UHGV virus genome: UHGV-1775856
Source of the DNA: a virus
DNA: 15,357 nucleotides
Strand: one strand, 5' to 3'
The translations under genes and the position numbers were made by a program. The notes below the pieces were generated by a model. It was given only the letters and a program-made list of their open reading frames with translations, searched no databases and was not told the DNA's origin. Shown here piece by piece: positions 247 to 15,018 of the stretch. The first letter of the stretch is position 1. Each line of letters starts with the position of its first letter.

Positions 247-639
247 ATGTCTGATAAAGTAACAGTAAAGCAAACTATCAACAAAGCGACTTCAATCTAC
301 AAAATTGAGCACATCACTGTTGGCAAGCCAGGATCTGAACAATACCGTCATGCTTTCGAGCTTGCCGATCAGCTTGGTTTAAAACACCCGGATTGCATCG
401 AGCATGTATTTCCGACCTATGCTGATGAGCAATGTACTCATGTTCTTACCGAAGAGGATTTTTTCAGCACTGAAGAACGAGAAGGCGTTGATCGCTGCAT
501 TGGTGTGATTTGTTCTTCGGTAAGTGATGAGTTATTCCCTAATGTGCCTGAATATGGTGGTATTGGATACCAATTCCTGTACGAAGGCGATGAGCTTAAA
601 TGTTATGAACATGGTCTTCTTATCGAAAGCGTAGAATAA
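247..639 (+). CDS. hypothetical protein, 130 aa, function unknown
   Basis: ATG start with AAGGG Shine-Dalgarno about 8 nt upstream; followed by a hairpin and T-rich tract; no motif recognised. Confidence 0.6.
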   Translation: MSDKVTVKQTINKATSIYKIEHITVGKPGSEQYRHAFELADQLGLKHPDCIEHVFPTYADEQCTHVLTEEDFFSTEEREGVDRCIGVICSSVSDELFPNVPEYGGIGYQFLYEGDELKCYEHGLLIESVE

Positions 640-752: not shown

Positions 753-793
753 GCTGTAAGCCGCGCCGTTCGTGGCCTGAAACGGGATCAACA

Positions 794-900
794 TTGACTA
801 TACGCGATTTTATGTTGACTGTGTGCGATTTTATGTTGACTGCACGCGATTTATTGTTGACTATACGCGACAGAAACGTTGACTGTACGCGATTTTAGAG
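794..900 (+). repeat. five direct iterons (core TTGACTRYRYGCGAT) at 21-22 bp spacing; RepA binding sites of the origin (incC-like)
   Basis: Copies start at 794, 815, 836, 857 and 879, spaced 21, 21, 21 and 22 bp (two helical turns), directly upstream of repA. Confidence 0.8.
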
Positions 901-973
901 CCTGAATATTCACAGCTGTTGATAACAGTCATCTAAATTAACGCCAGGCCGCGCCACACATGGAGAAACCACG

Positions 974-1858
974 ATGCCGGAAGAAAGTAAAGGCTTCCTT
1001 AGCGTTGAAGAAGTTGCAGGAAATACAGGAGAAATCCACAGCCTGAAGCCCAATAACAACAGCACTATACAACCCATAGCTTTGTTGCGCTTAGGTGTGT
1101 TTGTGCCAACCTTAAAATCTACCAATGTGGCGCTACGTCGCGGATCGTCAGTTACAACAAACACAACGAACGCAACCGAAGAACTATCAAGCCTCAAAAT
1201 TGTTGAGCAGGAAGGCTATGAGGGAATTGAAATTCATGGTCCACGCCTGGATATGGATACTGATTTTAAGGTGTGGGTGGGCATAACCTCCGCGTTGTTT
1301 GACTATGCTCCTGATGATGACGGCATAATCACCCTGCCATTCTCCGAGTTTGCCGATCGATGCGGCTATCCACGTAAGCGCCTTTCAAAGGCGTTCCGTA
1401 AAAGTATTGATGACTCTCTGACACGCATTCAGCAGACAGTTGTCAAATTCCGCTTCCCGGCGGCAAAAGGTCATCTCAATAACATTAACGTCAACTTGTT
1501 GGCATATAGCAGCCTGAATACCGAGCTTGATGTTATCGAGATCCAGCCGCAAAAACAGCTATCTGAACTTTACTATGTTGACTATAAGCGAATCCTGAAG
1601 CTGAAGATGCTGGATAAGCTCGGGCGCAAAGAGACGGCCAAGGTGCTGTATACATTCTTTGAGGCTCTACCCGCCAACCCGGCACCTGTCAGCATTGAGC
1701 GCCTTAGAGCAAGGCTTAATCTCAAATCATCCGTTAGCGTGCAAAATAGCGTTATCAGAAAAGCCATGAAAGATTTGGAAGCTATTGAATATCTTAAATT
1801 TTCAGAGATAAAAAACGGCAGAAAAATCGGCTTCCAGATCCATAAGCGCAATCCATAA
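974..1858 (+). CDS. repA: plasmid replication initiator RepA (P1/RepFIB-like, iteron-binding)
   Basis: 294-aa ORF flanked on both sides by iteron arrays. It contains blocks I recall as conserved in P1-type RepA (QPIALLRLGVFVP, GPRLDMDTDFKVW, C-terminal HKRNP), but the overall sequence and the iterons differ from the P1 19-bp iteron, so this is a divergent allele. Confidence 0.85.
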   Translation: MPEESKGFLSVEEVAGNTGEIHSLKPNNNSTIQPIALLRLGVFVPTLKSTNVALRRGSSVTTNTTNATEELSSLKIVEQEGYEGIEIHGPRLDMDTDFKVWVGITSALFDYAPDDDGIITLPFSEFADRCGYPRKRLSKAFRKSIDDSLTRIQQTVVKFRFPAAKGHLNNINVNLLAYSSLNTELDVIEIQPQKQLSELYYVDYKRILKLKMLDKLGRKETAKVLYTFFEALPANPAPVSIERLRARLNLKSSVSVQNSVIRKAMKDLEAIEYLKFSEIKNGRKIGFQIHKRNP

Positions 1859-1860
1859 TA

Positions 1861-2116
1861 TTGACTATATGCGATAGCGAGAAGTTGACTATAGGCGACA
1901 TTCGTTGACGCTGGTGGATTTTTGCTGGCGTCAATATTCTGCAAGTCGCTATTGAGATGGCTTTTAGGGTCATTTCATCGCGTATAGTCAACGTTTCTCC
2001 CGACAATATCTTACATAGTCGATCTTTGGTGGAGTTAAATCGACTACAGTCAACTTTTGACTGTAGTCACATCGCGCATAGTCAACTATTCAAATTAACC
2101 TTCGCGCATAGTCAAC
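1861..2116. repeat. second iteron field downstream of repA, with copies in both orientations (incA-like copy-control locus)
   Basis: Plus-oriented TTGACT cores at 1861, 1885, 1905 and about 2056; minus-oriented copies (seen as GCGCATAGTCAA or CGTATAGTCAACG) at about 1927, 1981, 2043, 2073 and 2103. Several form inverted pairs. Confidence 0.7.
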
Positions 2117-2150
2117 ATTTGCGCGGTTCTCATCAAGCAGTGGTATTGAT

Positions 2151-2960
2151 ATGCAAGAAGAGAAACAACACTACCTCTACGTTCTGGTGCCAGAGAACGG
2201 AGATACTTTTAAAATCGGCATTTCATGTGGTCCATTGGCACGGTTTAAAGGGCTACAAGTGAGTCCCGATTTTGCGCTTTCACGGGTCTATCGTGGTACA
2301 CGTTTGGCAATGGTTAATCTTGAGCGGGCTTTACACGCAACCTTTTTCCCCTGGAATGCGCCGTGGGAGAAAAGCGTCGGTGGCGGGCATACTGAATGGT
2401 TTACACGAGAGTGTCTTGATAAGGTTTTGGCTCATATCGAATATCTAAATGATATGTGGGGAGGGATTCTCGAGCGCATTAAGTCGAATGATTTACTTCA
2501 GCGTCCAGTAGATGCTGCTTGCTCTTTCGAAAAAGAGCTGGATGTTACTTCTATCGTGACTTTCAAAGATGACGCAGGAATGAGGGACGTGGCTTATGTC
2601 TCCATATCTGGCTATGAACCGGACGCGATCCGCGCTCAATGTGAATTGCTGAAAGCAATGTTTATGCTTCGGACTAAATATCCCTGGGATACAGGGCGGG
2701 TGTGCTTCCCTATGGAAGAGTTAACCGCCACCATTGATTCCCAGCTTTACCACGATAATCCAGAGAAGTTTTTTAGCCTTTTAGCCGGTAATGGGCTTAA
2801 CTGTGTGTCCGGGCTGGGGCGAAGTAGAATCCAACATGCCTCGCTCTTCGGTCCCTTCTTTTACGATCGACACGGGTACTTTGAGGCTGAACTTCCGGCG
2901 CTTACGCGTGCTATAGATACTATCGATTTCGAACGATTATTCGCTGCTCTTAGCAAATAA
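2151..2960 (+). CDS. T5orf172/GIY-YIG-like domain protein, 269 aa; N-terminal nuclease-like domain plus a C-terminal region of about 160 aa of unknown function
   Basis: N-terminus carries the T5orf172/MUG113 signature: YLYVL, KIGIS, R, LH..F, GGHTEWF, in the right order and spacing. The gene starts about 35 bp after the last iteron and ends at a strong terminator. It lies between the replication and partition modules, where P1 (from memory) has no gene. Confidence 0.6.
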   Translation: MQEEKQHYLYVLVPENGDTFKIGISCGPLARFKGLQVSPDFALSRVYRGTRLAMVNLERALHATFFPWNAPWEKSVGGGHTEWFTRECLDKVLAHIEYLNDMWGGILERIKSNDLLQRPVDAACSFEKELDVTSIVTFKDDAGMRDVAYVSISGYEPDAIRAQCELLKAMFMLRTKYPWDTGRVCFPMEELTATIDSQLYHDNPEKFFSLLAGNGLNCVSGLGRSRIQHASLFGPFFYDRHGYFEAELPALTRAIDTIDFERLFAALSK

Positions 2961-2965
2961 CACTG

Positions 2966-2990
2966 ATGCCCCTGAACGGGGCTTTTTTGT
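2966..2990 (+). terminator. rho-independent terminator after the T5orf172-like gene
   Basis: GCCCC (2968-2972), loop TGAAC, GGGGC (2978-2982), then TTTTTT. Confidence 0.7.
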
Positions 2991-3077
2991 GCCTTTCTTG
3001 TAACTCTCAATCGTGCAAAATGAACCAAACATGCAGAGAATGCTATGTACAAGCATCTACGCATACATTATTATTTT

Positions 3078-3113
3078 ATGCAGCATTTTTAATTAAATTC
3101 AAAAATACAGCAT
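3078..3113. promoter_or_regulatory. putative par operon promoter/operator: imperfect 13-bp inverted repeat in an AT-rich leader
   Basis: ATGCAGCATTTTT (3078-3090) and AAAAATACAGCAT (3101-3113) match 11 of 13 as inverted repeats, just upstream of the parA Shine-Dalgarno; ParA autoregulates at such a site in P1. Confidence 0.4.
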
Positions 3114-3128
3114 AAAGGATGACTTTCG

Positions 3129-4325
3129 ATGAGTGATTCCAGCCAGCTTCACAAGGTTGCTCAAAGAGCAAACAGAATGCTCAATGTTCTGACTGAACAA
3201 GTACAGTTGCAAAAGGATGAGCTACACGCGAACGAGTTTTACCAGGTCTATGCGAAAGCGGCACTGGCAAAATTGCCTCTACTGACTCGAGCGAACGTTG
3301 ACTATGCCGTAAGTGAAATGGAAGAAAAGGGTTATGTTTTCGATAAACGCCCTGCTGGCTCTTCAATGAAATATGCGATGTCAATTCAGAACATCATTGA
3401 CATATATGAACATCGCGGAGTGCCAAAATACCGGGATCGCTACAGCGAAGCGTATGTGATTTTCATCTCCAATCTTAAAGGCGGTGTGTCAAAAACTGTA
3501 TCGACGGTTTCTCTGGCGCATGCAATGCGTGCCCACCCTCATCTTCTGATGGAAGATTTAAGGATTCTGGTTATTGACCTTGATCCGCAATCTTCAGCAA
3601 CGATGTTTTTAAGCCATAAACACTCTATTGGTATCGTAAACGCAACATCTGCACAGGCTATGTTGCAGAATGTAAGCCGTGAAGAGCTGTTAGAGGAGTT
3701 TATTGTTCCTTCTGTTGTACCTGGGGTTGACGTTATGCCTGCGTCGATTGACGATGCCTTTATTGCATCCGATTGGAGAGAGCTGTGCAATGAGCATCTA
3801 CCGGGTCAGAACATCCATGCTGTCCTGAAAGAAAATGTGATTGATAAGCTGAAGAGCGATTATGACTTTATCCTCGTTGATAGTGGTCCTCACCTTGACG
3901 CCTTCCTGAAAAATGCTTTGGCCTCGGCCAATATACTGTTTACACCTCTGCCGCCAGCAACTGTCGATTTCCACTCATCGCTTAAATACGTTGCCCGCCT
4001 TCCTGAGTTGGTAAAACTCATTTCGGATGAAGGCTGCGAGTGCCAGCTTGCGACTAACATTGGTTTTATGTCCAAGTTGAGTAACAAGGCAGATCATAAG
4101 TATTGCCATAGCCTGGCTAAAGAAGTGTTCGGTGGGGATATGCTTGATGTCGTCCTCCCTCGCCTTGACGGTTTTGAACGCTGCGGCGAGTCTTTTGACA
4201 CTGTTATTTCAGCTAACCCGGCAACGTATGTTGGTAGTGCTGATGCATTGAAGAACGCGCGAATTGCCGCGGAAGATTTTGCTAAAGCAGTTTTTGACCG
4301 TATTGAATTTATCAGATCTAACTGA
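3129..4325 (+). CDS. parA: partition ATPase ParA (type Ia, with N-terminal DNA-binding extension)
   Basis: 398 aa; deviant Walker A KGGVSKT; length and sequence recognised as P1 ParA-like; followed 16 bp later by parB. Confidence 0.92.
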   Translation: MSDSSQLHKVAQRANRMLNVLTEQVQLQKDELHANEFYQVYAKAALAKLPLLTRANVDYAVSEMEEKGYVFDKRPAGSSMKYAMSIQNIIDIYEHRGVPKYRDRYSEAYVIFISNLKGGVSKTVSTVSLAHAMRAHPHLLMEDLRILVIDLDPQSSATMFLSHKHSIGIVNATSAQAMLQNVSREELLEEFIVPSVVPGVDVMPASIDDAFIASDWRELCNEHLPGQNIHAVLKENVIDKLKSDYDFILVDSGPHLDAFLKNALASANILFTPLPPATVDFHSSLKYVARLPELVKLISDEGCECQLATNIGFMSKLSNKADHKYCHSLAKEVFGGDMLDVVLPRLDGFERCGESFDTVISANPATYVGSADALKNARIAAEDFAKAVFDRIEFIRSN

Positions 4326-4341
4326 GGAGTAAGAAACCCCC

Positions 4342-5343
4342 ATGTCAAAGAAAAACAGACCAACAATTGGGCGAACCCTTAATCCTTCAATATTAAGCGG
4401 ATTTGATAGTTCTTCAGCCTCTGGCGATCGAGTCGAGCAGGTATTCAAGTTATCAACTGGTCGCCAGGCCACATTTATTGAAGAGGTAATACCTCCGAAC
4501 CAGGTAGAAAGCGATACCTTTGTTGATCAGCATAACAACGGGCGTGACCAGGCATCTCTTACGCCAAAATCATTAAAAAGTATCCGAAGCACTATTAAGC
4601 ATCAGCAATTTTACCCTGCAATAGGTGTTAGACGGGCTACAGGGAAAATTGAAATTTTGGATGGTTCCCGGCGTCGAGCTTCTGCCATCTTAGAGAACGT
4701 AGGGTTGCGGGTTTTAGTCACGGACCAGGAGATCAGCGTTCAGGAAGCGCAAAATTTAGCGAAAGACGTTCAGACAGCATTGCAGCACAGCATTCGAGAA
4801 ATAGGTCTGCGTTTGATGCGAATGAAAAATGATGGGATGAGTCAGAAGGATATTGCAGCCAAAGAAGGGCTGTCTCAGGCGAAGGTCACGCGTGCTCTCC
4901 AGGCAGCGAGTGCTCCGGAAGAATTAGTCGCCCTTTTCCCTGTTCAGTCGGAATTAACCTTTTCGGACTACAAAACGCTTTGTGCTGTTGGCGACGAAAT
5001 GGGGAACAAGAATTTAGAGTTTGATCAGCTTATTCAAAACATATCCCCGGAAATAAACGACATCTTATCCATTGAAGAAATGGCCGAAGATGAAGTTAAA
5101 AATAAAATCCTGCGCTTGATAACAAAGGAAGCCTCACTACTCACGGATAAAGGTTCTAAAGATAAGTCCGTAGTTACTGAATTATGGAAATTTGAGGACA
5201 AGGATCGCTTTGCAAGGAAGCGCGTGAAAGGCCGTGCATTTTCTTATGAGTTTAATCGACTTTCAAAAGAGCTACAGGAAGAACTCGACAGGATGATTGG
5301 GCATATCCTTAGAAAGAGCCTCGATAAAAAGCCGAAGCCTTAA
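4342..5343 (+). CDS. parB: partition centromere-binding protein ParB
   Basis: 333 aa; sequence recognised as P1 ParB-like; immediately followed by a parS-like site. Confidence 0.92.
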   Translation: MSKKNRPTIGRTLNPSILSGFDSSSASGDRVEQVFKLSTGRQATFIEEVIPPNQVESDTFVDQHNNGRDQASLTPKSLKSIRSTIKHQQFYPAIGVRRATGKIEILDGSRRRASAILENVGLRVLVTDQEISVQEAQNLAKDVQTALQHSIREIGLRLMRMKNDGMSQKDIAAKEGLSQAKVTRALQAASAPEELVALFPVQSELTFSDYKTLCAVGDEMGNKNLEFDQLIQNISPEINDILSIEEMAEDEVKNKILRLITKEASLLTDKGSKDKSVVTELWKFEDKDRFARKRVKGRAFSYEFNRLSKELQEELDRMIGHILRKSLDKKPKP

Positions 5344-5344
5344 A

Positions 5345-5432
5345 CTTTCGCCATTCAAATTTCACTATTAACCAACTGTTTTTAAAGTAAATCCATCTAA
5401 AATTTCAAGGTGAAATCGCCACGATTTCACCT
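5345..5432. other. parS: parS centromere: box A (ATTTCAC) and box B (TCGCCA) motifs flanking an AT-rich, IHF-site-like centre
   Basis: Box B TCGCCA at 5348-5353 and 5416-5421; box A ATTTCAC at 5359-5365 and 5424-5430, plus an inverted ATTTCA at 5411-5416; the arrangement matches published P1 parS as I recall it. Confidence 0.8.
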
Positions 5433-5488
5433 TGGATTTTACCTTCCTCCCCTACTCCCGAAAAAAATAAAAAAATTGCTTGTCACGA

Positions 5489-5517
5489 GAAAGTCAACAA
5501 GTGACTTTCAATAAAAT
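5489..5517 (+). promoter_or_regulatory. candidate promoter for the structural operon: perfect 8-bp inverted repeat GAAAGTCA-ACAAG-TGACTTTC followed by a -10-like ATAAAAT
   Basis: Arms at 5489-5496 and 5502-5509, then AATAAAAT at 5510-5517. P1 late promoters are reported to carry an inverted repeat centred near -22 plus a -10 element; I do not recall the exact consensus. Confidence 0.35.
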
Positions 5518-5568
5518 CTCTTCCGAAAAGGGATTCACACAAGTGCCTTGTGTTTAAGGAAGAGTAAA

Positions 5569-7275
5569 TTGAGTAACTTACGCGAATACCAGAATCGTAT
5601 TGCAGATATCGCAAAACGCTCTAAAGCTGTGCTTGGCTGGGCAAGCACTGCGCAGTTCGGTACTGATAACCAATTCATTAAAGATGATGCCGCGCGTGCC
5701 GCATCTATCCTTGAAGCTGCACGTAAAGACCCGGTTTTTGCGGGTATCTCTGATAATGCCACCGCTCAAATCGCTACAGCGTGGGCAAGTGCACTGGCTG
5801 ACTACGCCGCAGCACATAAATCTATGCCGCGTCCGGAAATTCTGGCCTCCTGCCACCAGACGCTGGAAAACTGCCTGATTGAGTCCACCCGCAATAGCAT
5901 GGATGCCACTAATAAAGCGATGCTGGAATCCGTCGCAGCAGAGATGATGAGCGTTTCTGACGGTGTTATGCGTCTGCCTTTATTCCTCGCGATGATCCTG
6001 CCTGTTCAGTTGGGGGCAGCTACCGCTGATGCGTGTACCTTCATTCCGGTTACGCGTGACCAGTCCGACATCTATGAAGTCTTTAACGTGGCAGGTTCCT
6101 CTTTTGGTTCTTATGCTGCTGGTGATGTTCTGGACATGCAATCCGTCGGTGTGTACAGCCAGTTACGCCGCCGCTATGTGCTGGTGGCAAGCTCCGATGG
6201 CACCAGCAAAACCGCAACCTTCAAGATGGAAGACTTCGAAGGCCAGAATGTACCAATCCGAAAAGGTCGCACTAATATCTACGTTAACCGTATTAAGTCT
6301 GTTGTTGATAACGGTTCCGGCAGCCTACTTCACTCGTTTACTAATGCTGCTGGTGAGCAAATCACTGTTACCTGCTCTCTGAACTACAACATTGGTCAGA
6401 TTGCCCTGTCGTTCTCCAAAGCGCCGGATAAAGGCACTGAGATCGCAATTGAGACGGAAATCAATATTGAAGCCGCTCCTGAGCTGATCCCGCTGATCAA
6501 CCACGAAATGAAGAAATACACCCTGTTCCCAAGCCAGTTCGTTATCGCGGCTGAGCACACGGTACAGGCGGCGTATGAAGCACAGCGTGAATTTGGTCTG
6601 GACCTGGGTTCCCTACAGTTCCGCACCCTGAAGGAATACCTGTCTCATGAACAGGATATGCTGCGTCTTCGCATCATGATCTGGCGTACTCTTGCGACCG
6701 ACACCTTTGACATCGCTCTGCCGGTTAACCAGTCCTTTGATGTATGGGCAACCATCATTCGTGGCAAATTCCAGACTGTATATCGCGACATTATTGAGCG
6801 CGTTAAATCTTCTGGTGCGATGGGGATGTTTGCTGGTGCTGATGCAGCATCTTTCTTCAAACAGTTGCCGAAGGATTTCTTCCAGCCAGCCGAAGACTAT
6901 ATCCAGACTCCGTATGTTCACTACATCGGTACCCTGTTCGGTAACGTGAAAGTGTACGAAGTACCTGCTGGTATTTGTAAGAACTTAACGACAGAGAACA
7001 TTCAGTTCAGCTCGATGGATGTGCTGTGCTACGTCCGTGATGAAAATCCGGGTAAAGCAGGCTTCGTGACTGGTGATGCTGTCCCGGCTATCCCGTTCCA
7101 GCATCCGACCACTCCGGCGCTGGTCAACCGTACCACACTGTGGGGTTCGGCTATCAACGATATGCACCCACGCAACGGCGCTGATTACTTCACTCGTGTA
7201 ACGCTGACAATGGCCAAAAAAGGCGGGCTTAACTTCATTAGCGGCGACACGATTGATGCCGGTGACTCTGAGTAA
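5569..7275 (+). CDS. large virion structural protein, possibly the major head protein (P1 gene 23 position); start assigned to TTG at 5569
   Basis: Long ORF (track 5548-7275) with no in-frame ATG near the 5' end; TTG at 5569 sits 6 nt after AAGGAAG. It is first in an operon with a sheath-like gene and is followed by a GC hairpin. The head assignment rests on position only. Confidence 0.7.
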   Translation: MSNLREYQNRIADIAKRSKAVLGWASTAQFGTDNQFIKDDAARAASILEAARKDPVFAGISDNATAQIATAWASALADYAAAHKSMPRPEILASCHQTLENCLIESTRNSMDATNKAMLESVAAEMMSVSDGVMRLPLFLAMILPVQLGAATADACTFIPVTRDQSDIYEVFNVAGSSFGSYAAGDVLDMQSVGVYSQLRRRYVLVASSDGTSKTATFKMEDFEGQNVPIRKGRTNIYVNRIKSVVDNGSGSLLHSFTNAAGEQITVTCSLNYNIGQIALSFSKAPDKGTEIAIETEINIEAAPELIPLINHEMKKYTLFPSQFVIAAEHTVQAAYEAQREFGLDLGSLQFRTLKEYLSHEQDMLRLRIMIWRTLATDTFDIALPVNQSFDVWATIIRGKFQTVYRDIIERVKSSGAMGMFAGADAASFFKQLPKDFFQPAEDYIQTPYVHYIGTLFGNVKVYEVPAGICKNLTTENIQFSSMDVLCYVRDENPGKAGFVTGDAVPAIPFQHPTTPALVNRTTLWGSAINDMHPRNGADYFTRVTLTMAKKGGLNFISGDTIDAGDSE

Positions 7276-7301
7276 TCAGGGGAAGTTCTCCGTTTAACAT
7301 A

Positions 7302-7320
7302 GCGCCCCCGTGCGGGGCGC
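7302..7320 (+). other. GC-rich hairpin with no U-tract between the 575-aa and 529-aa genes; possible partial terminator or mRNA stabiliser
   Basis: GCGCCCC (7302-7308), loop CGTGC, GGGGCGC (7314-7320). Confidence 0.35.
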
Positions 7321-7335
7321 ATAACAGGGAAAGTT

Positions 7336-8925
7336 ATGTCTCAATATTCAATTCAACAGTCATTAGGTAATGCATCCGGCGTCGCGGTTAGCCCGATCAA
7401 TGCCGATGCGACGTTATCTACCGGTGTTGCATTAAATAGCAGCTTGTGGGCTGGTATTGGCGTATTTGCGCGTGGCAAGCCGTTTACTGTTCTTGCGGTT
7501 ACTGAGTCCAATTACGAAGATGTTCTCGGCGAACCGCTGAAGCCGTCTTCCGGCTCACAGTTCGAACCAATTCGCCATGTATACGAAGCTATTCAGCAAA
7601 CATCTGGTTATGTTGTTCGCGCTGTTCCGGATGATGCGAAGTTCCCGATTATTATGTTCGATGAATCAGGCGAACCGGCTTACAGTGCGTTGCCATACGG
7701 TTCTGAAATTGAACTTGATAGTGGCGAAGCCTTTGCTATCTACGTTGATGATGGTGATCCGTGTATTTCACCTACCCGTGAGTTAACCATCGAAACGGCA
7801 ACAGCGGACAGCGCGGGTAATGAACGCTTCCTCTTAAAACTGACCCAGACGACTTCGCTCGGCGTGGTAACGACCCTGGAGACACACACTGTGTCTTTGG
7901 CGGAAGAAGCGAAAGATGACATGGGCCGCTTGTGTTATCTGCCTACGGCTCTGGAAGCCCGTTCTAAATATCTGCGCGCGGTTGTTAATGAAGAGCTGAT
8001 TTCGACAGCGAAAGTAACAAACAAAAAATCGTTGGCGTTCACTGGCGGTACCAACGGCGATCAGTCGAAAATCTCAACCGCTGCGTACCTGCGTGCGGTG
8101 AAAGTGCTGAACAATGCGCCGTACATGTACACCGTTGTTCTCGGCCTGGGGTGCTATGACAATGCGGCGATCACTGCGTTAGGTAATATCTGTTCTGATC
8201 GCCTGATTGATGGCTTCTTTGATGTCAAACCGACATTGACGTACACGGAAGCGATCTCTGCTGTTGAAGATACCGGTTTACTTGGTACCGATTATGTAAG
8301 CTGTGCTGTCTATCATTTCCCGTTCTCCTGCAAAGACAAATGGACCCAATCCCGCGTGGTCTTCGGTCTGTCTGGCGCGGCGTATGCGGCGAAAGCTCGT
8401 GGCGTCAAGAAAAACTCCGATGTCGGCGGTTGGCATTACTCACCGGCTGGTGAAGAACGTGCCGTCATAGCTCGTGCATCACTTCAGCCGCTGTATCCTG
8501 AAGACACCCCGGACGAAGAAGCTATGGTCAAGGGCCGACTCAATAAAGTATCTGTAGGTACTTCGGGCCAGATGATCATCGATGATGCTTTAACTTGCTG
8601 CACGCAGGACAACTATCTGCATTTCCAGCACGTCCCATCCCTGATGAACGCAATCAGCCGTTTCTTTGTCCAGTTAGCCCGACAGATGAAGCATAACCCG
8701 GACGGCATTACTGAGTCTGGCCTGACTAAAGGGATGACCAAACTTTTGGATCGCTTTGTCGCCTCCGGCGCTCTGGTGGCTCCTCGTGATCCTGATGCTG
8801 ACGGTACAGAACCGTATGTGCTGAAAGTTACGCAGGCGGAATTCGATAAATGGGAAGTAGTCTGGGCCTGCTGCCCGACTGGCGTAGCCCGTCGTATCCA
8901 GGGCGTACCGCTGCTTATTAAGTAA
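7336..8925 (+). CDS. contractile tail sheath-like protein
   Basis: 529 aa; AGGGAAAG Shine-Dalgarno. The segment AAYAAKARGVKKNSDVGGWHYSPAG resembles the recalled P2 FI sheath segment (ARALGLRAKIDQEQGWHKT), and the C-terminal region has sheath-like hydrophobic periodicity; the size fits a sheath subunit. Confidence 0.7.
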   Translation: MSQYSIQQSLGNASGVAVSPINADATLSTGVALNSSLWAGIGVFARGKPFTVLAVTESNYEDVLGEPLKPSSGSQFEPIRHVYEAIQQTSGYVVRAVPDDAKFPIIMFDESGEPAYSALPYGSEIELDSGEAFAIYVDDGDPCISPTRELTIETATADSAGNERFLLKLTQTTSLGVVTTLETHTVSLAEEAKDDMGRLCYLPTALEARSKYLRAVVNEELISTAKVTNKKSLAFTGGTNGDQSKISTAAYLRAVKVLNNAPYMYTVVLGLGCYDNAAITALGNICSDRLIDGFFDVKPTLTYTEAISAVEDTGLLGTDYVSCAVYHFPFSCKDKWTQSRVVFGLSGAAYAAKARGVKKNSDVGGWHYSPAGEERAVIARASLQPLYPEDTPDEEAMVKGRLNKVSVGTSGQMIIDDALTCCTQDNYLHFQHVPSLMNAISRFFVQLARQMKHNPDGITESGLTKGMTKLLDRFVASGALVAPRDPDADGTEPYVLKVTQAEFDKWEVVWACCPTGVARRIQGVPLLIK

Positions 8926-8934
8926 GGAAATACA

Positions 8935-9750
8935 ATGAGCAAAAACTTTTTTCAATCCGGGGCATTTTTGGGGAATGGACTGTCTCGTTTCGCTTTGAAC
9001 TCTGATCCTGTGCAGTTGATGGAGTCTGCCCGAGCAAGCGCCGAACCGACAACAGATCCGGTTATTAATAATAATCCGAAACCGGCGGCACAGACTAACG
9101 ATAACGTTCCATCTGCCACGGCTCCTGAGCAAATCCTGGAAGGGAAAGACGGTAAAGAATGGACCGTCGAACAGGCGCACCAGATGATTCTGGAAGCTGC
9201 AAATCGAAGTGCTATGCAGAATGCGTTGAGTGATGCGGCCGACGCCGTTTTCGCCTGGGCTGATAGCGGTGATCTGACTTTCGACTCCCTTGATGGTTTC
9301 GTTCAGGCTATCGCTGGTATCTCTGATGACGACGACTCCGAAGTTACAGAAGAACAGGACGATGCCTATAACGAAGCATGGGCAAATGTTGCTGACTTCC
9401 TCGCAGCATGCGGTGTAGATGATGACCTGATCGAAGCACTGGCTGACGATGAAGACGACGACGCAGCTGCTGATGTTGGTGCCTCTATCGCTGGTTTAGA
9501 TAGCGACGACCGTGACGAACTGGAAGCGGCGTTTGTTGTTGCTGGCACTTCTGATGAAATGCTGACTGAAGCATTTAAGAAGGTTGTTCGTAACGGTGAG
9601 ATCAAACTCATCCGTAAACGCCTGCGTAAAAAACGTCTGACTGCGGCTCAAAAATCGGCGCTGAAAAAAGCGCGTCGTAAAGCCCAGACCGGCGCGGCAA
9701 AACTGGCCCGCAAAAAGTCAATGAAACTGCGCCGTAAGCGCCTCGGCTAA
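8935..9750 (+). CDS. highly acidic protein with a Lys/Arg-rich C-terminal tail, function unknown
   Basis: 271 aa; Shine-Dalgarno AAGGAAA; Asp/Glu-rich central region (for example DDDDSEVTEEQDD and ADDEDDDAAAD), and a last ~50 aa that are almost all K/R/A. Confidence 0.7.
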   Translation: MSKNFFQSGAFLGNGLSRFALNSDPVQLMESARASAEPTTDPVINNNPKPAAQTNDNVPSATAPEQILEGKDGKEWTVEQAHQMILEAANRSAMQNALSDAADAVFAWADSGDLTFDSLDGFVQAIAGISDDDDSEVTEEQDDAYNEAWANVADFLAACGVDDDLIEALADDEDDDAAADVGASIAGLDSDDRDELEAAFVVAGTSDEMLTEAFKKVVRNGEIKLIRKRLRKKRLTAAQKSALKKARRKAQTGAAKLARKKSMKLRRKRLG

Positions 9751-9785
9751 AGGAGGAGGCCGGAGAACTCCGGCCTTTAACTTGA

Positions 9786-10367
9786 ATGGCACCTATACCT
9801 TATGGGGTTTACAGCCAGGCTGACGGTGTATCGCCATATCTGAAAGTTACTTTAACGAACTCTCAGTACCAGGTTACCGGATATATCAGCCAGGGAGCGG
9901 CAATGAACATGGCCCAGAATTGGGAAGCGCCGTTTACCGGTATGTCCATGGGATCTGTTGCTGGTGCCTTCAGTGGTTTTGCGCAGGTTGGTACTGAAAC
10001 AACGTCGGTTGCCCGTTGGAACAGCTTAATGGTTTGGGAAGGGGGAACACCGCCGACTTTCACGCTGCCAGTAACTTTCATCGCTTTGTTTGACCCATTC
10101 ACGGAGGTTTCAGGAGCTATCGCCGCATTGTCAGCGATGATTAGCCCGGAACTTAAAGATGCCAGTATTGGTGGTCGAATCCCGGAGCGTGTGACGCTAA
10201 ACATTGGTCGCCGGATCAACATCATTGATGTCGCTATCCAGGACATAAGTTTCGATCTCGATGCGCCCAGGGACAGCAATGGGCATTTCCTGAAAAACAC
10301 CGTCAACCTCCAGTTGACCGGTTCTTCGATATATAACAGCTCCGATATTGTTCGGGCGTTCCAGTAA
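9786..10367 (+). CDS. hypothetical protein in the tail/baseplate-associated module
   Basis: 193 aa, co-directional and tightly packed in the structural operon; the nearest Shine-Dalgarno (AGGAGGAGG, 9751-9759) is separated from the ATG by a hairpin. Confidence 0.65.
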   Translation: MAPIPYGVYSQADGVSPYLKVTLTNSQYQVTGYISQGAAMNMAQNWEAPFTGMSMGSVAGAFSGFAQVGTETTSVARWNSLMVWEGGTPPTFTLPVTFIALFDPFTEVSGAIAALSAMISPELKDASIGGRIPERVTLNIGRRINIIDVAIQDISFDLDAPRDSNGHFLKNTVNLQLTGSSIYNSSDIVRAFQ

Positions 10368-10378
10368 AAGGATTTTAT

Positions 10379-10888
10379 ATGGGGCACAATAATACTAAGG
10401 GAAACCGTAAATTTATTAAGGGCCGCTATACTGCCAACGCGGCCAAAGGCGAACGACTGGTATCTTCTGAATTCCAGCTCACTTTTGCAGGCCATGAAGA
10501 TATCAGCGTACTGGTTCGCACGTCGCAAATTCCTGAAATGACCCGCGAGGATGTGGAGGACTATGGTCCGAATGGTGTGAAGTTCAACCAGCACGGTCCA
10601 ATTCGAAACTCTGGGGAAATCCAGGTCCAGTGCGTGGAGACTATCGAAGGCGATATTCTTCAGTTCATTAAAGATCGCATTGCGGCGAAGGACTATGTTG
10701 ATATCACGATGGCTGCGACCCCTGAATCCAAATCTTCCGGGGTTAACGCTGTGACAAAAGCTGCTACAACAATTGAAATGTTGGACTGCAAAATCTACAG
10801 TGATGCAATCGACTTTAGTACCGAAGATGTGACTGCTGCTGTGCGCCCGTCACTTCGTATCGTCTACAACTGGATTGAGTGGGATTAA
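10379..10888 (+). CDS. hypothetical protein, possible tail tube or baseplate component
   Basis: 169 aa; AAGGA Shine-Dalgarno 6 nt before the ATG; last gene before a strong terminator; the size is typical of contractile-tail tube or baseplate subunits. Confidence 0.7.
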   Translation: MGHNNTKGNRKFIKGRYTANAAKGERLVSSEFQLTFAGHEDISVLVRTSQIPEMTREDVEDYGPNGVKFNQHGPIRNSGEIQVQCVETIEGDILQFIKDRIAAKDYVDITMAATPESKSSGVNAVTKAATTIEMLDCKIYSDAIDFSTEDVTAAVRPSLRIVYNWIEWD

Positions 10889-11059: not shown

Positions 11060-11656
11060 ATGGCTGTGATTCCAATGTCGTACTCCCCGGGTACTGTCGC
11101 TCGTCGATTTTCGATCCTGGACGGAGTTACCATCCAGGGTGTGCTTTACCAGGTTATATGGGATTCCAAAACCCCATTTGCAGCTGTAATAGAGGCTGCG
11201 CCTTCTATTATCGATGGTGATATGCGCCATAAGGTTGTCGCTACTCTTGAACTTCAACGTCGCCCGCAGCTTGAAGGCGTACTGGTAAGGAAGTTCTGGG
11301 AGGATAGCGATGTTGCCCAGATTGAAGGTATCGTGGTTGATGGAACCGTCCGGGATGTCGGTTTAGCTACTTTTGTTTACGAAACCGTAGCCTCAAAAGC
11401 TGGTGTTGTTTTGCTCAGTGATAATGAGCAATACGAAGGTGGAAAAGCTCTTTGGCAACACATCGCCCGTCGCTCTTCCGAGCTAAAAGTGTTTATCCTT
11501 GACACCGATGCCGCTCAGTATTACCCGTTTGACGGCGAACGTGTTTGCTATGACGGGGTAAGTATTCCTGAATCCGAGATATGGAGTGAACACCCAGATC
11601 GAAGTAAGCATGGGGTTGTTCTGGTCGCTGAATCCATAATTGGAAATGCGGCATAG
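11060..11656 (+). CDS. hypothetical protein, about 200 aa, function unknown; likely C1-controlled
   Basis: ORF track 11024-11656. ATG at 11060 has AAGGGGG about 9 nt upstream; the ATG at 11024 has GAGGT only 3 nt upstream. It has its own promoter region after the operon terminator. Confidence 0.65.
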   Translation: MAVIPMSYSPGTVARRFSILDGVTIQGVLYQVIWDSKTPFAAVIEAAPSIIDGDMRHKVVATLELQRRPQLEGVLVRKFWEDSDVAQIEGIVVDGTVRDVGLATFVYETVASKAGVVLLSDNEQYEGGKALWQHIARRSSELKVFILDTDAAQYYPFDGERVCYDGVSIPESEIWSEHPDRSKHGVVLVAESIIGNAA

Positions 11657-11838
11657 CAGTAAAAAATTCCTTGCTCCTTAAAAGGGGAGAGGGTTAATCT
11701 ACGTATGCTAAGCATAGAGATGGCCTCAGATTAATGTTAAGCGTCTTGCAGGACGCGTAATGTTATCTGGGGCGTTCTTCTATCTGCTTTTCGGGTAATG
11801 CCTGAAGCAGATAGCCTCAAGCACCCGTAACGATTGTA

Positions 11839-13009: not shown

Positions 13010-13810
13010 TTAGCGCGTTGCCGCGACAGGTACCAGCACACCAGCATCAAGCAATCGCTTCATCAGCCACTGCTGACCTTTGCCGGTTATACGAGTCGTG
13101 AAAGAAATCCTGCTTCCATTGCTTGTATCGATCACGGTTTCTTTAAGGGTGAAATACCCACGGGATATGTATTCTTGTTTGGGGACGTTCCTGCGTTCAC
13201 CGGTTGCGATCAGAATTCCGTTATCACGCAACCAGGTGAAGAGATAGTTTTGGCCCAGGCCGAGCACTTTGGCATAGTTGCCGATTAGAACCCCGCTGGC
13301 GGTAGCAACGCGTTCGGCGAATTCGACTTTAGGTGCATCCATCAGCATTTTTTGCTCCAGCCGTTGCTTTTGCTCTGCCAGGTCAGCAGCCAAACGGAGA
13401 GCTTCTGGGAGGCTCTTCGGAATAGCAGGTTGTAATCTTCCGGCTCGATAGTCGATAAATGTCTGGTTTACCTTCAGCCGAAACGCGGGAGAAATCCAGC
13501 CTGCGTACTCCACTGCGAGCAATTCATGGGCAAAAGTGCCGCCGCCACGGCCTTCGAACGAAACTATGCAATTCTGCATAGTTTCTTTTTCAAGCTCTTC
13601 GATGAGCTGTTTGGCTGACAGCGTTCTTAGCCATTGAGCTGGCGCTTTATGGGCACCGAGTCCGCTCGCTCTGTGTAGAGCATTAAGGTTGTAACGGCCA
13701 GCGCGGTCGGTCGTAATTTCAACACCACAAATAACGGGCAGAGTGGTTGAAGGATCGACATTTTGATGAAGGTTTGATATATTCATATCCGCATTGAATG
13801 TTTGTTGCAT
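13010..13810 (-). CDS. kilA: KilA (KilA-N domain at the N-terminus, KilAC domain at the C-terminus)
   Basis: 266 aa, the P1 KilA length as I recall it; GGAG Shine-Dalgarno 6 nt before the ATG at 13810; the C-terminal ~130 aa are clearly paralogous to the C-terminus of the upstream ant gene. Confidence 0.85.
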   Translation of the reverse strand: MQQTFNADMNISNLHQNVDPSTTLPVICGVEITTDRAGRYNLNALHRASGLGAHKAPAQWLRTLSAKQLIEELEKETMQNCIVSFEGRGGGTFAHELLAVEYAGWISPAFRLKVNQTFIDYRAGRLQPAIPKSLPEALRLAADLAEQKQRLEQKMLMDAPKVEFAERVATASGVLIGNYAKVLGLGQNYLFTWLRDNGILIATGERRNVPKQEYISRGYFTLKETVIDTSNGSRISFTTRITGKGQQWLMKRLLDAGVLVPVAATR

Positions 13811-13974: not shown

Positions 13975-15018
13975 TTAACCTATTGCTACTGGTTTTAACA
14001 AACCAGCATCAAGTAGCTTGCGAGTTAACCACTGCTGGCCTTTACCCGTTAATTGGGGCGTCAGCCGTATCTGGTAGCCATTTTCATCATCCAGCACCAC
14101 TTCTTTCACCGTGAAATACCCGGCGTTGATGTACTGTTGGCGCGGTACGTTTTTGCGCGCACCAAAAGCCATGAGAATGCCGTTCTGGCGCAACCATGAG
14201 AAAAGGGCGTTTTGCTTAAGTCCAACGACCTTTGCAAAGTTCCCGATCAGGATTCCATTGGCCACTGATACCCGGTCGGCAAAATCGACTTTAGGGGCTG
14301 CGGCCACCAGCTGTTGTTCCAGCTGCATTTTCTGTTCTGCCAACTCGGCAGCCAGGCGTAGAGCTTCTGGTAATGTTTGGGGGATCGATGGGGTAGGGGA
14401 GTTTGCCTGCTGCAATTCTTCCAGTTTGTCGATCAGCGAACGGCGGACGGCTTTTGATTCGCGTGCGGCGACTCGCAGGGCTTGTTTGTAGGTCATGGTT
14501 ATGACAACCATAGGCGTACCGCCACCTGGCGGCACGGTTGCACTTTTTGTGTAACCGTCCTCACCTTCTAATTCGTCGAGTATTTTTTCGATGAATTTGT
14601 TGTTCCGAACCTCTGGTTCCCCACATAACTTACGCGCTTCATTGACCATCTTTAACAGTGTCAGGCTGTCGATTGTGTCTCCGGTGTTGGGGATGATATT
14701 CACGGCTGGTGCTGGCGTAGCTGACGTAACAGGTGCTGTTTTTTCAACATTCAAATTATTACCGGTCATTCTATGTGCCTCCTTTCTCATTTCTGCTGCC
14801 ACTGTTGCGTAACGTAGACGTCCTTGTTCAATCAAATAATCCCTGATCTCGGCTATCAGTAGCTTGTTGATCACAGCCTTATCTGTTCGGGTATAAAAAC
14901 GTCTGGTTATCATGAAATAGTTGGCAATTGCGCCGGGGATCTCCCGTGTCGGCATACAGGCAGTATGCAGGGCGATCGCTTCGGCTATGTCATTACGGGT
15001 GACGAGAGGTTTTTTCAT
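13975..15018 (-). CDS. ant: antirepressor Ant (AntA/Rha-like middle region plus C-terminal KilAC domain)
   Basis: 347 aa; the start ATG overlaps the icd stop in an ATGA arrangement; GGGGGG Shine-Dalgarno; the C-terminal KilAC domain is paralogous to kilA; internal in-frame Met codons could give a shorter Ant2-like product. Confidence 0.8.
   Translation of the reverse strand: MKKPLVTRNDIAEAIALHTACMPTREIPGAIANYFMITRRFYTRTDKAVINKLLIAEIRDYLIEQGRLRYATVAAEMRKEAHRMTGNNLNVEKTAPVTSATPAPAVNIIPNTGDTIDSLTLLKMVNEARKLCGEPEVRNNKFIEKILDELEGEDGYTKSATVPPGGGTPMVVITMTYKQALRVAARESKAVRRSLIDKLEELQQANSPTPSIPQTLPEALRLAAELAEQKMQLEQQLVAAAPKVDFADRVSVANGILIGNFAKVVGLKQNALFSWLRQNGILMAFGARKNVPRQQYINAGYFTVKEVVLDDENGYQIRLTPQLTGKGQQWLTRKLLDAGLLKPVAIG

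Follow-up and report, generated by a model that had tools for sequence, protein, structure and literature searches.

The window (the whole 15,357-nt stretch of DNA analysed here) is a p0111-type P1-like phage-plasmid of the RCS47/SJ46/JL22 type. In its maintenance region, a replicon cassette is followed by the par operon (table 1). The last gene of the cassette, between the incA-like iterons and the par promoter, is an intact ORF encoding a T5orf172-family protein. The initial annotation had noticed this ORF in the gap between rep and par, with replicon iterons upstream and a terminator of its own downstream, and each of these elements is confirmed. The start codon is an ATG located 31 nt 3′ of the last iteron and is preceded by a weak Shine-Dalgarno sequence. 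A sigma-70 promoter scan upstream of the gene gave no match, and within the incA-like field neither a terminator nor a sigma-70 match was predicted. The five-iteron arrangement upstream of repA is also present in the related locus L003, whose RepA is 84% identical to that of the window; two PLSDB records carry a RepA in the range of 80–90% identity to that of the window. As RNA, the hairpin downstream of the gene has a predicted stability of −11.9 kcal/mol (z −2.95), and a similar hairpin followed by a T-tract lies 3′ of the homologue in L079. The predicted terminator shields the autoregulated par promoter from read-through. The GC content of the gene is not anomalous and therefore gives no compositional hint of a recent foreign origin.

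Table 1. Organization of the rep-par region in the window
Feature	Position	Strand	Basis and remarks
Exchangeable replicon cassette (incC iterons, repA, incA iterons, T5orf172 gene, terminator)	768..3029	+	blastn vs P1
Five direct iterons upstream of repA (incC/origin-type)	792..892	+	Repeat search; 21-22 nt apart
repA, Rep3-family initiator, p0111 type	974..1858	+	Pfam Rep3_C, Rep3_N
incA-like iteron field	1859..2120	.	Repeat search (direct and inverted pairs); two forward copies 1859-1898; four reverse copies 1978-1996, 2040-2058, 2072-2090, 2102-2120
T5orf172-family gene	2151..2960	+	ORF list, translation, Pfam; 269 aa
T5orf172 / GIY-YIG-fold nuclease domain, N-terminal	2172..2405	+	aa 8-85
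C-terminal domain	2463..2957	+	aa 105-269; family-specific, fast-evolving, acidic
Predicted intrinsic terminator of the gene	2968..2990	+	Hairpin GCCCC-TGAAC-GGGGC, then TTTTTTGTGC
Right flank: P1-identical par promoter/operator region	3030..3128	+	100/100 identity to P1 (L002 5001-5100)
parA	3129..4325	+	ParA 99.7% identical to P1
parB	4342..5343	+	ParB 100% identical to P1

The N-terminal domain matches the Pfam T5orf172 profile PF10544 (E 6.9e-6; 26.9 bits for a gathering cut-off of 20), and the motifs YLYVL, KIGIS, and GGHTEWF correspond to residues 8–12, 21–25, and 78–84. Against the same profile, 25.1 bits are reached by the homologue P0009 and 26.7 bits by P0011; the Pfam match to MUG113 is under its own cut-off. 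In an alignment of 62 sequences, Y10, K21, G23, R31, E58, and E82 are invariant and H62 is nearly so. An AF2 model built on the 62-sequence alignment predicts a GIY-YIG alpha/beta fold for this domain, and a fold search relates it to SLX1 (PDB 6seh, 7cq2, and 7wme). The likeness is one of fold only, as SLX1 is eukaryotic, works with SLX4, and has a RING/PHD domain. ICP1 ORF88 is also among the structural matches of the protein. Profile score, conserved Y10, R31, and E82, and fold all uphold the T5orf172/GIY-YIG assignment first made from short motifs. In RefSeq the same ORF is named "GIY-YIG nuclease family protein". PHROGs places it in family 2876, of "unknown function", with a weak match to an endonuclease family, and scans of the protein with NCBIfam and PADLOC gave no match.

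The C-terminal part, of about 165 residues, had been said to resemble nothing described. In agreement with this, it matched none of the models of Pfam, NCBIfam, and PADLOC, an hmmsearch of PDB sequences was negative, and no known DNA-binding family was detected. Structure prediction combined with a fold search had been proposed at the outset for this domain. The AF2 model (pLDDT 83.5; DSSP order helix-strand-helix-helix-strand-strand) predicts a winged-helix-like core at residues ~157–230, with weak fold matches to WH or Rep WH1 domains. The calculated pI is 5.4–5.6 for the whole protein and ~5.1 for the C-terminal domain, and the protein is acidic in all four lineages of the family described below.

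Alignment of the junction with P1 places the gene in a larger unit of exchange. By blastn, positions 1–767 and 3027–10392 of the window are homologous to P1 at 94.3% and 98.0% identity, respectively, and between these arms nothing is alignable except 59 nt inside repA. The exact right junction with the P1 homology is at position 3030. The P1 maintenance region (oriR-repA-incA-parAB-parS) has the same layout, and upfA, the DnaA-box/GATC part of oriR, Ppar, parA, and parB are 94–100% identical. In contrast, the RepA proteins are 41–42% identical, the iterons are of another type, and P1 has 171–190 bp without a gene where the window cassette holds the nuclease gene. No remnant of this gene was detected in the P1 incA-Ppar spacer by tblastn or blastn-short. 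The initial annotation had described the P1 par promoter as following incA directly; it was right in that no gene intervenes, but 190 bp separate the last incA iteron (L002 4826) from the −35 box of Ppar (L002 5017). Its proposal of a single-gene cargo inserted at a P1 rep-par junction has to be given up: the whole incC-repA-incA-gene block differs and replaces the 1.5-kb IncY block of P1.

A second pair of elements shows the same limits. L003 and L077 share a backbone with 94–99% DNA identity and 100% identical ParA, whereas their RepAs are 40% and their nucleases 29% identical. The exchanged block extends from the first iteron to 63–84 nt beyond the stop codon of the nuclease gene, limits that are also those separating the window from P1; they thus recur in two independent backbone pairs. 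T5orf172 HEGs have been found at exchange boundaries and beside essential genes (PMC10448857), a pattern that both pairs fit. Taken alone, the location of the nuclease at the cassette edge is a weak argument, as any swap of a heterologous block by homologous recombination gives the same edges. The gene is swapped along with the replication module of P1-like phage-plasmids.

The distribution of the gene follows the replicon type. The segment from the 3′ end of repA to the gene is found in one piece in 390 of 403 PLSDB records (~97%), and the gene is present in all 30 ParA-seeded contigs with a p0111-type repA. Conversely, none of the 44 IncY P1/P7-type replicons sampled with ParA as seed carries it. 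Among 80 ParA-seeded loci, the slot contains a member of the T5orf172 family or nothing, and never another defence gene. Only four lineages of the full-length family were recovered from a search of 5.8 billion protein clusters (1.84 billion representatives). These are mutually only 27–44% identical, but all four occur in P1-like elements, in the interval from the incA iterons to parA, beside three RepA types, with a start codon 20–33 nt 3′ of the last iteron. A scan of genome contigs for the family returned one locus, of the window type, and when viral and metagenome data were scanned with the family as seed, only window-type copies came up; no P0009- or P0011-type copy was found in PLSDB. The more distant N-terminal relatives P0013, P0014, and P0017 have contexts unrelated to replicons, so that the link to the rep-par junction is limited to the four lineages. 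Presence/absence polymorphism exists between elements with 99% identical RepA (L079 with the gene, L106 and L107 without) and between elements with related RepA (L077 with the gene; L080, L108, and P1 without). The empty site in L106 and L107 is a deletion remnant that keeps the first ~11 codons. As it is the only resolved empty site, losses are documented and gains are not.

The initial annotation had set variable cargo against a gene conserved in all relatives with this replicon type. The PLSDB and contig counts agree with the second as far as presence is concerned, but the gene is repeatedly pseudogenised. We identified three independent nonsense alleles, W68*, S112* (five loci), and Q228* (two loci), in addition to one frameshift, one IS200/IS605 insertion, and the deletion remnant. 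Over ~74 loci, about 85% of the sampled copies are intact and about 14% are disrupted. The repA, parA, and parB genes of the loci with a disrupted copy contain no stops. As nonsense, frameshift, IS, and deletion alleles recur, the gene is dispensable and needed for neither replication nor partition. Constraint on it is relaxed but real: pN/pS is 0.29, against 0.00–0.05 for repA/parAB (0.02 for repA), and is well under 1 in both halves of the gene. Near-universal with p0111-type repA, but repeatedly inactivated and less constrained than repA and parAB, it is not a functional core gene. Within the p0111 type, pS is 0.028 for the gene and 0.038–0.049 for its flanks; this flank-like diversity indicates long vertical co-inheritance and not recent spread. 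Between the window and L003, where synonymous sites are saturated and dN alone is given without dN/dS, the C-terminal half has a dN of 0.72 and repA of 0.13, a rate ~5.6 times faster. By analogy, the combination of a constant catalytic domain with a second domain that changes rapidly recalls the pattern of HEGs and of SNIPE-type nucleases.

We tentatively favour, with a probability of roughly 40%, a free-standing homing-type or competition endonuclease tied to the exchange of replicon cassettes. Dispensable and fast-evolving, the gene probably encodes a selfish or competing nuclease and would not be inserted cargo; among the defence, anti-defence, and selfish functions first proposed, the selfish one is the best of the three, and the defence option found no PADLOC match. 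The analysis establishes the family and the fold of the protein, its conserved catalytic-type residues, the linkage of the gene to the cassette, its restriction to one slot, and its dispensability; a nuclease activity, a target, co-transcription with repA, and a homing or killing outcome are inferred. The protein would be an endonuclease from the T5orf172 branch of the GIY-YIG superfamily, encoded by a free-standing gene that resides in an exchangeable replicon cassette. Little of it would be made, probably by way of the repA transcript or of a promoter that overlaps the RepA-bound iterons. It would cut the DNA of another P1-like element, co-resident or incoming, that has a different rep-par junction or cassette. 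The cut rival would be lost, or else repaired from the nuclease-carrying plasmid, a repair that would copy the adjacent replicon cassette together with the nuclease gene. When no rival allele is around the gene would drift, which would account for both its fast evolution and its repeated decay.

Several known systems resemble this arrangement in part. In I-TevI/Seg-type GIY-YIG HEGs, the nuclease domain is N-terminal and the variable domain C-terminal. The domain order here matches that of these phage T4 enzymes, an analogy that we count in favour of homing: a catalytic domain of GIY-YIG fold is followed by a separate C-terminal domain, which in I-TevI has a targeting role. They are likewise encoded by free-standing genes between conserved genes and spread by co-conversion of flanking markers, as we propose here. 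Unlike I-TevI, the protein belongs to the T5orf172 branch, has KIG instead of YIG, lacks an I-TevI-type zinc finger or HTH, and is acidic, not basic. An acidic pI is unusual in a sequence-specific DNA-binding HEG, and HEG families usually occupy many sites. The homing reading is weakened by the acidity of the protein, which has no recognised DNA-binding family, by the confinement of its family to one slot, and also by the flank-like diversity of the gene and the origin of the one resolved empty site by deletion. On the other side, presence/absence polymorphism at a single locus and degenerate copies, both seen here, are traits of free-standing HEGs. The T5orf172 HEGs of ICP1 and other phages are also free-standing, and "HEG-islands" have been described (Barth, Dunham and Seed 2023, PMC10448857). 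ICP1-type HEGs share with our gene the nuclease family, a position next to an essential and modular locus, where a block exchanged between otherwise near-identical genomes ends, and an unstable content, with low-identity homologues or absence at one place. However, they bind DNA through their N-terminal part, usually made up of CapR, DUF723, or DUF4397 zinc fingers, whereas our protein starts with the nuclease and continues with a family-specific, acidic domain that is predicted to be winged-helix-like. In addition, they reside in a lytic phage genome and not, like the present gene, in a plasmid-prophage replicon, whose cassette is flanked by a single nuclease gene.

The strongest competitor, although itself unlikely, is a replicon accessory or regulator working with its own RepA and iterons to tune copy number, handcuffing, or origin processing. 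Such a protein could possibly bind RepA through its WH1-like domain, nick or occupy incA, or be a partly domesticated nuclease like the CapR of PLE. Should it modulate RepA, a classic iteron replicon would gain a new accessory factor. Against such a role, the inactivating nonsense, frameshift, IS, and deletion alleles occur in otherwise intact plasmids, including L024 (97,897 bp) and L031 (103,445 bp), and all 44 sampled IncY P1/P7-type replicons do without the gene. The window and L003 share iterons and have 84% identical RepAs, but their C-terminal domains are only 32% identical, which is hard to fit with a partner-specific role. Comparison of the C-terminal domain with the cognate RepAs by hhalign gave a probability of 0.2%, with no detectable similarity to any neighbouring RepA, and the catalytic-type residues are still invariant, unlike what is expected of a purely regulatory derivative.

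Less probable again is a nuclease for anti-phage defence, superinfection exclusion, or anti-defence, whose variable C-terminal domain would direct the cutting of incoming foreign DNA. Defence is a known role of GIY-YIG nucleases, and SNIPE diversifies in its non-nuclease domains, which bind protein (PMC13190303); the fast-evolving C-terminal domain could be compared to these. Moreover, phage-plasmids are known carriers of accessory genes, and the genes of some more distant N-terminal relatives have Mrr/WYL-type neighbours (P0014). Nevertheless, no PADLOC-DB v2 model matched at E<=1, and the protein has neither a transmembrane segment, nor DUF4041, nor a partner gene, whereas the SNIPE set combines TM, DUF4041, and GIY-YIG. 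The slot was never occupied by other defence genes in the 80 ParA-seeded loci, and the gene moves with the replicon module and is not tied to the regions known to vary among P1-like elements (PMC9603915). The frequent pseudogenes are compatible with defence but not diagnostic of it.

We give a still lower probability to an initiator-mimic incompatibility weapon, in which a Rep-WH1-like C-terminal domain would bring the nuclease to a rival replicon to destroy or convert it. The rival would be found through its foreign iterons or by pairing with foreign or iteron-bound RepA, and nuclease expression would depend on how far RepA occupies the neighbouring incA iterons. Phage-plasmids with otherwise near-identical backbones carry at least three types of Rep-iteron cassette; the resulting conflict would drive this striking diversity and would parallel, on plasmids, the arms race between ICP1 Odn and PLE. 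Odn (ICP1 Gp88) is an origin-directed nuclease (Barth et al. 2021, PMC8263062). Like the present protein it belongs to the T5orf172 nucleases, and its catalytic Glu, E180, corresponds by motif position to E82 here. It is similarly tied to modular Rep-and-iteron replicons whose swapping alters specificity; the weak fold matches of our C-terminal model also favour Rep-type WH domains. However, Odn binds DNA through an N-terminal domain with 42% identity to the RepA_N of its target, whereas the putative targeting domain here has no detectable homology to an initiator DNA-binding domain. Odn is also encoded by the attacker of the replicon, while the present gene lies inside the replicon cassette. 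The least probable reading, a formerly active and now functionless relic retained only by linkage to repA, would fit the at least five independent inactivation types in ~74 sampled loci, a pN/pS roughly 6 to >25 times that of neighbouring genes, and the absence from every sampled IncY element, but it is at odds with ~85% of intact copies, a pN/pS that stays well under 1 in both halves, catalytic-type residues invariant across lineages 27–44% identical, and an ORF still open in four lineages with saturated synonymous sites.

If the protein is, as in the homing-type or competition reading, an active nuclease that biases cassette survival when two P1-like elements meet, it would explain why IncY and p0111 replicons alternate on one backbone. 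It would also extend from lytic phages to plasmid replicons the notion that nuclease genes mark boundaries of genetic exchange, and plasmid incompatibility would gain a further layer, based on a nuclease. P1-like phage-plasmids occur widely and carry resistance genes. The gene, so far mentioned merely as an unknown ORF, is nonetheless common, being found in 412 of 5426 complete E. coli genomes.

The window represents a P1-like phage-plasmid of the same kind as RCS47, SJ46, and JL22; over 4.7 kb, these phages and hundreds of Escherichia coli and Salmonella plasmids are 99–100% identical to it. The initial annotation had read the T5orf172 gene as a single-gene insertion at the rep/par junction of a phage-plasmid. 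Instead, a whole 2.26-kb cassette replaces the IncY block of P1. Homology to P1 (94%, positions 1–767) breaks off between the DnaA-box/GATC part of oriR and the iterons, close to both. At 3027–3030 it restarts, about 70 nt past the ORF stop codon and a short way upstream of the Ppar promoter elements; these fall inside the P1-identical stretch. Nothing is alignable with P1 between these limits, and RepA is only 41–42% identical to that of P1, ParA and ParB being 99.7–100% identical. The block of iterons, repA, iterons, ORF, and terminator therefore occupies the place of the 1.5-kb IncY block. In P1, 171–190 bp of unassigned DNA separate the last incA iteron from the boundary and Ppar, and no remnant of the T5orf172 gene was found in this spacer. 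The gene is already annotated and very common, and its replacement together with repA is in print; its function is unstudied. The element pSvP1 carries two ORFs between repA and parA (PMC6906374). Our literature search returned no paper connecting T5orf172 with phage-plasmids.

Layout of the replication and partition region of the window
Feature	Position	Strand	Remark
upfA	247–639	+	
Five direct iterons	792–892	+	
repA	974–1858	+	Rep3 family
incA-like iteron field	1859–2120		
T5orf172 ORF	2151–2960	+	269 aa
Hairpin with T-run	2968–2990		3' of T5orf172 ORF
P1 par promoter region	between hairpin and parA		
parA	3129–4325	+	
parB	4342–5343	+	
P1 head and tail genes	downstream of parB		

An ORF called at 1957–2262 (+) is spurious, as it translates the iteron field into repeated "AYSQH"-type peptides. 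The same holds for residues 1–41 of the homologous protein P0004 (10001–10123 in its locus, L003), whose true start lies at 10124. The iteron-like 16-mer TGTTGACTATAAGCGA (94% to the reference iteron) is found within the repA coding sequence at 1576–1591 and is kept in the 84%-identical repA of L003 at 9612–9627; RepA may bind at this internal site.

The T5orf172 motifs quoted in the initial annotation are present in the translated ORF, and the domain is borne out by a Pfam match at residues 8–85 (26.9 bits, gathering score 20). RefSeq names the product "GIY-YIG nuclease family protein." Residues Y10, K21, G23, R31, E58, and E82 are invariant across 62 aligned sequences. In the AlphaFold2 model built from this alignment (pLDDT 83.5, pTM 0.63), the N-terminal part matches, by Foldseek against viral models, phage T5orf172 proteins, CapR-homology homing-endonuclease genes (HEGs), and Odn (ICP1 ORF88). 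The core of the C-terminal part (residues ~157–230) is modeled as helix-strand-helix-helix-strand-strand. This part has no similarity to Pfam or PDB sequences, its fold search gave no match reaching E 1e-3, and comparison with the neighboring RepAs detected no sequence similarity (hhalign probability 0.2%). The proteins of all four full-length lineages described below have a pI of 5.4–5.6 (C-terminal part ~5.1; RepA, 9.3). Their acidity weakens a simple reading as a DNA-binding domain; it would be compatible with binding to protein. Two features are new: this acidic C-terminal domain, winged-helix-like in the model, and a domain order that is the reverse of that in phage T5orf172 HEGs.

We searched 5.8 billion clusters with a word index, using the single protein and then a four-lineage profile, and scanned 1.84 billion representatives in full with HMMER. 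Only four full-length lineages were found: the window type (1241 member sequences), P0004, P0009 from Salmonella enterica, and P0011 from a faeces metagenome. The remaining ~150 matches cover the N-terminal domain only; among these relatives, P0014 and P0017 lie in unrelated genomic settings and the contig of P0013, 1.4 kb long, shows no context. All four full-length lineages occupy a single slot in P1-like elements, downstream of the incA iterons and upstream of parA, a restriction that is new. The adjoining RepA is p0111-like in the window and L003 (84% identical to each other), IncY-like in locus L077 (83% identical to P1), and of a third type in locus L079 (42–48% identical to all others). 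Co-transfer of the gene with at least three replicon types is likewise new. The backbones of L003 and L077 are 94–99% identical in DNA (ParA 100%, ParB 98%, gp23 99%), with RepA 40% and the nuclease 29% identical; the block exchanged between them starts at the first iteron and ends 63–84 nt beyond the nuclease stop codon. Iterons, repA, iterons, and nuclease gene are thus transferred together as a single cassette, and this holds for two independent backbone lineages. The terminator T-tract and ~50 nt beyond it are alike in the window (2977–3029) and L079 (about 6015–6065), whose nucleases are only 28% identical, and a conserved cassette end is suggested for these two types. The start codon follows the last iteron by 20–33 nt in each of the four lineages and has a weak Shine-Dalgarno sequence. 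In the window, neither a sigma-70 match nor a terminator is predicted in the stretch from repA to the ORF. From these features we infer co-transcription with repA or a promoter overlapping RepA-bound iterons.

In PLSDB, the RepA of the window (at least 90% identity) is present in ~396 records and the ORF in 401. A probe covering the 3' end of repA through the end of the ORF matched 403 records, 390 in one piece; the exceptions listed are partial or cut at record ends. Two plasmid records carry a RepA 80–90% identical to that of the window; a search of PLSDB for diverged T5orf172 homologues found none. Of 5426 complete E. coli genomes, 412 have the ORF, which is nearly always plasmid-borne in them. 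Among 80 viral contigs, an unbiased set seeded on ParA, it occurs in 30/30 p0111-type versus 0/44 IncY replicons. The RepA and ParA types in these contigs (L080–L159) show independent assortment of the replication and partition modules: IncY RepA is paired with P1-type ParA in 17 loci and with a P7-like 401-aa ParA in 27, p0111 RepA with P1-type ParA only (30 loci), and the third RepA type with P7-like ParA.

In ~74 loci of the window type, internal stops are absent from repA, parA, and parB, whose pN/pS is 0.00–0.05. The T5orf172 ORF has a pN/pS of 0.29, alike in both halves, three independent nonsense alleles (W68*; S112* in five loci including L024; Q228* in two including L031), and one frameshift allele (L076). 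It is annotated as split in the pO111 record NC_013370. In the viral contig L044, an IS200/IS605-type insertion with deletion replaces nt 295–523 of the gene; the element (8277–10039) encodes a TnpB-like protein of 389 aa and a TnpA-like protein of 141 aa. L106 and L107 lack the gene though their RepA is 99% identical to that of L079. In both, the first ~11 codons of the gene (MNQTNDLYLYI) remain, joined to the terminator T-tract, so ~890 bp have been deleted. Between the window and L003, dN is 0.13 for repA, 0.07 for parA, 0.26 for parB, 0.13 for gp23, 0.28 for the nuclease domain, and 0.72 for the C-terminal half, which is not alignable at the DNA level. Given these findings, the gene is dispensable for plasmid maintenance. 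Some constraint still acts on it: ~85% of copies remain intact, and across lineages with saturated synonymous sites the ORF is still open. This pattern of dispensability and rate is new.

The nearest characterized relatives are phage T5orf172 HEGs, which are found next to essential genes where exchanged blocks end (PMC10448857). Odn, another close one, is a T5orf172 nuclease whose RepA-like domain directs cleavage of a rival element's iteron origin, and it thereby selects for replicon swapping (PMC8263062). We tentatively favor, at a probability of about 40%, a selfish or competitive role: the predicted nuclease would act against other P1-like elements and thereby favor its own replicon cassette. 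This reading fits the joining of a conserved nuclease core to a fast-diverging second domain, the presence/absence polymorphism with recurrent decay, and the position of the gene at one end of an essential module that can be swapped. Against it, the boundary argument is partly trivial, losses but no gains are documented, the internal diversity of the p0111 type indicates long vertical inheritance, and the protein is acidic with a target that is only hypothetical.

Strict synteny and hints of a Rep-like fold would suit an accessory or regulator of RepA and the iterons. We consider this unlikely in view of the natural null alleles, the absence of the gene from IncY replicons, and two cassettes with common iterons whose C-terminal domains are 32% identical. 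A defence or exclusion nuclease is somewhat less likely still, a PADLOC search being without match and the slot never being taken by another defence gene in the 80 ParA-seeded loci. We give slightly less credence to an initiator-mimic incompatibility nuclease driving replicon diversification. A relic without function is the least probable, with pN/pS well under 1 and invariant catalytic-type residues.

Elsewhere in the window, Rfam detects a sok antitoxin RNA (RF01794) at 11652–11826 (−) (82.5 bits, E 2e-17), overlapped by minus-strand small ORFs of 53–55 aa. The match indicates a type I toxin-antitoxin module of the hok/sok kind, flanked by the tail-tube gene and the Ant/KilA-like genes. Two neighboring, ordinary-looking Ant-type anti-repressor-like genes (PHROG 63) lie at 13013–13810 (−) and 13978–15018 (−) and presumably form part of the usual P1 immunity/kilA region.
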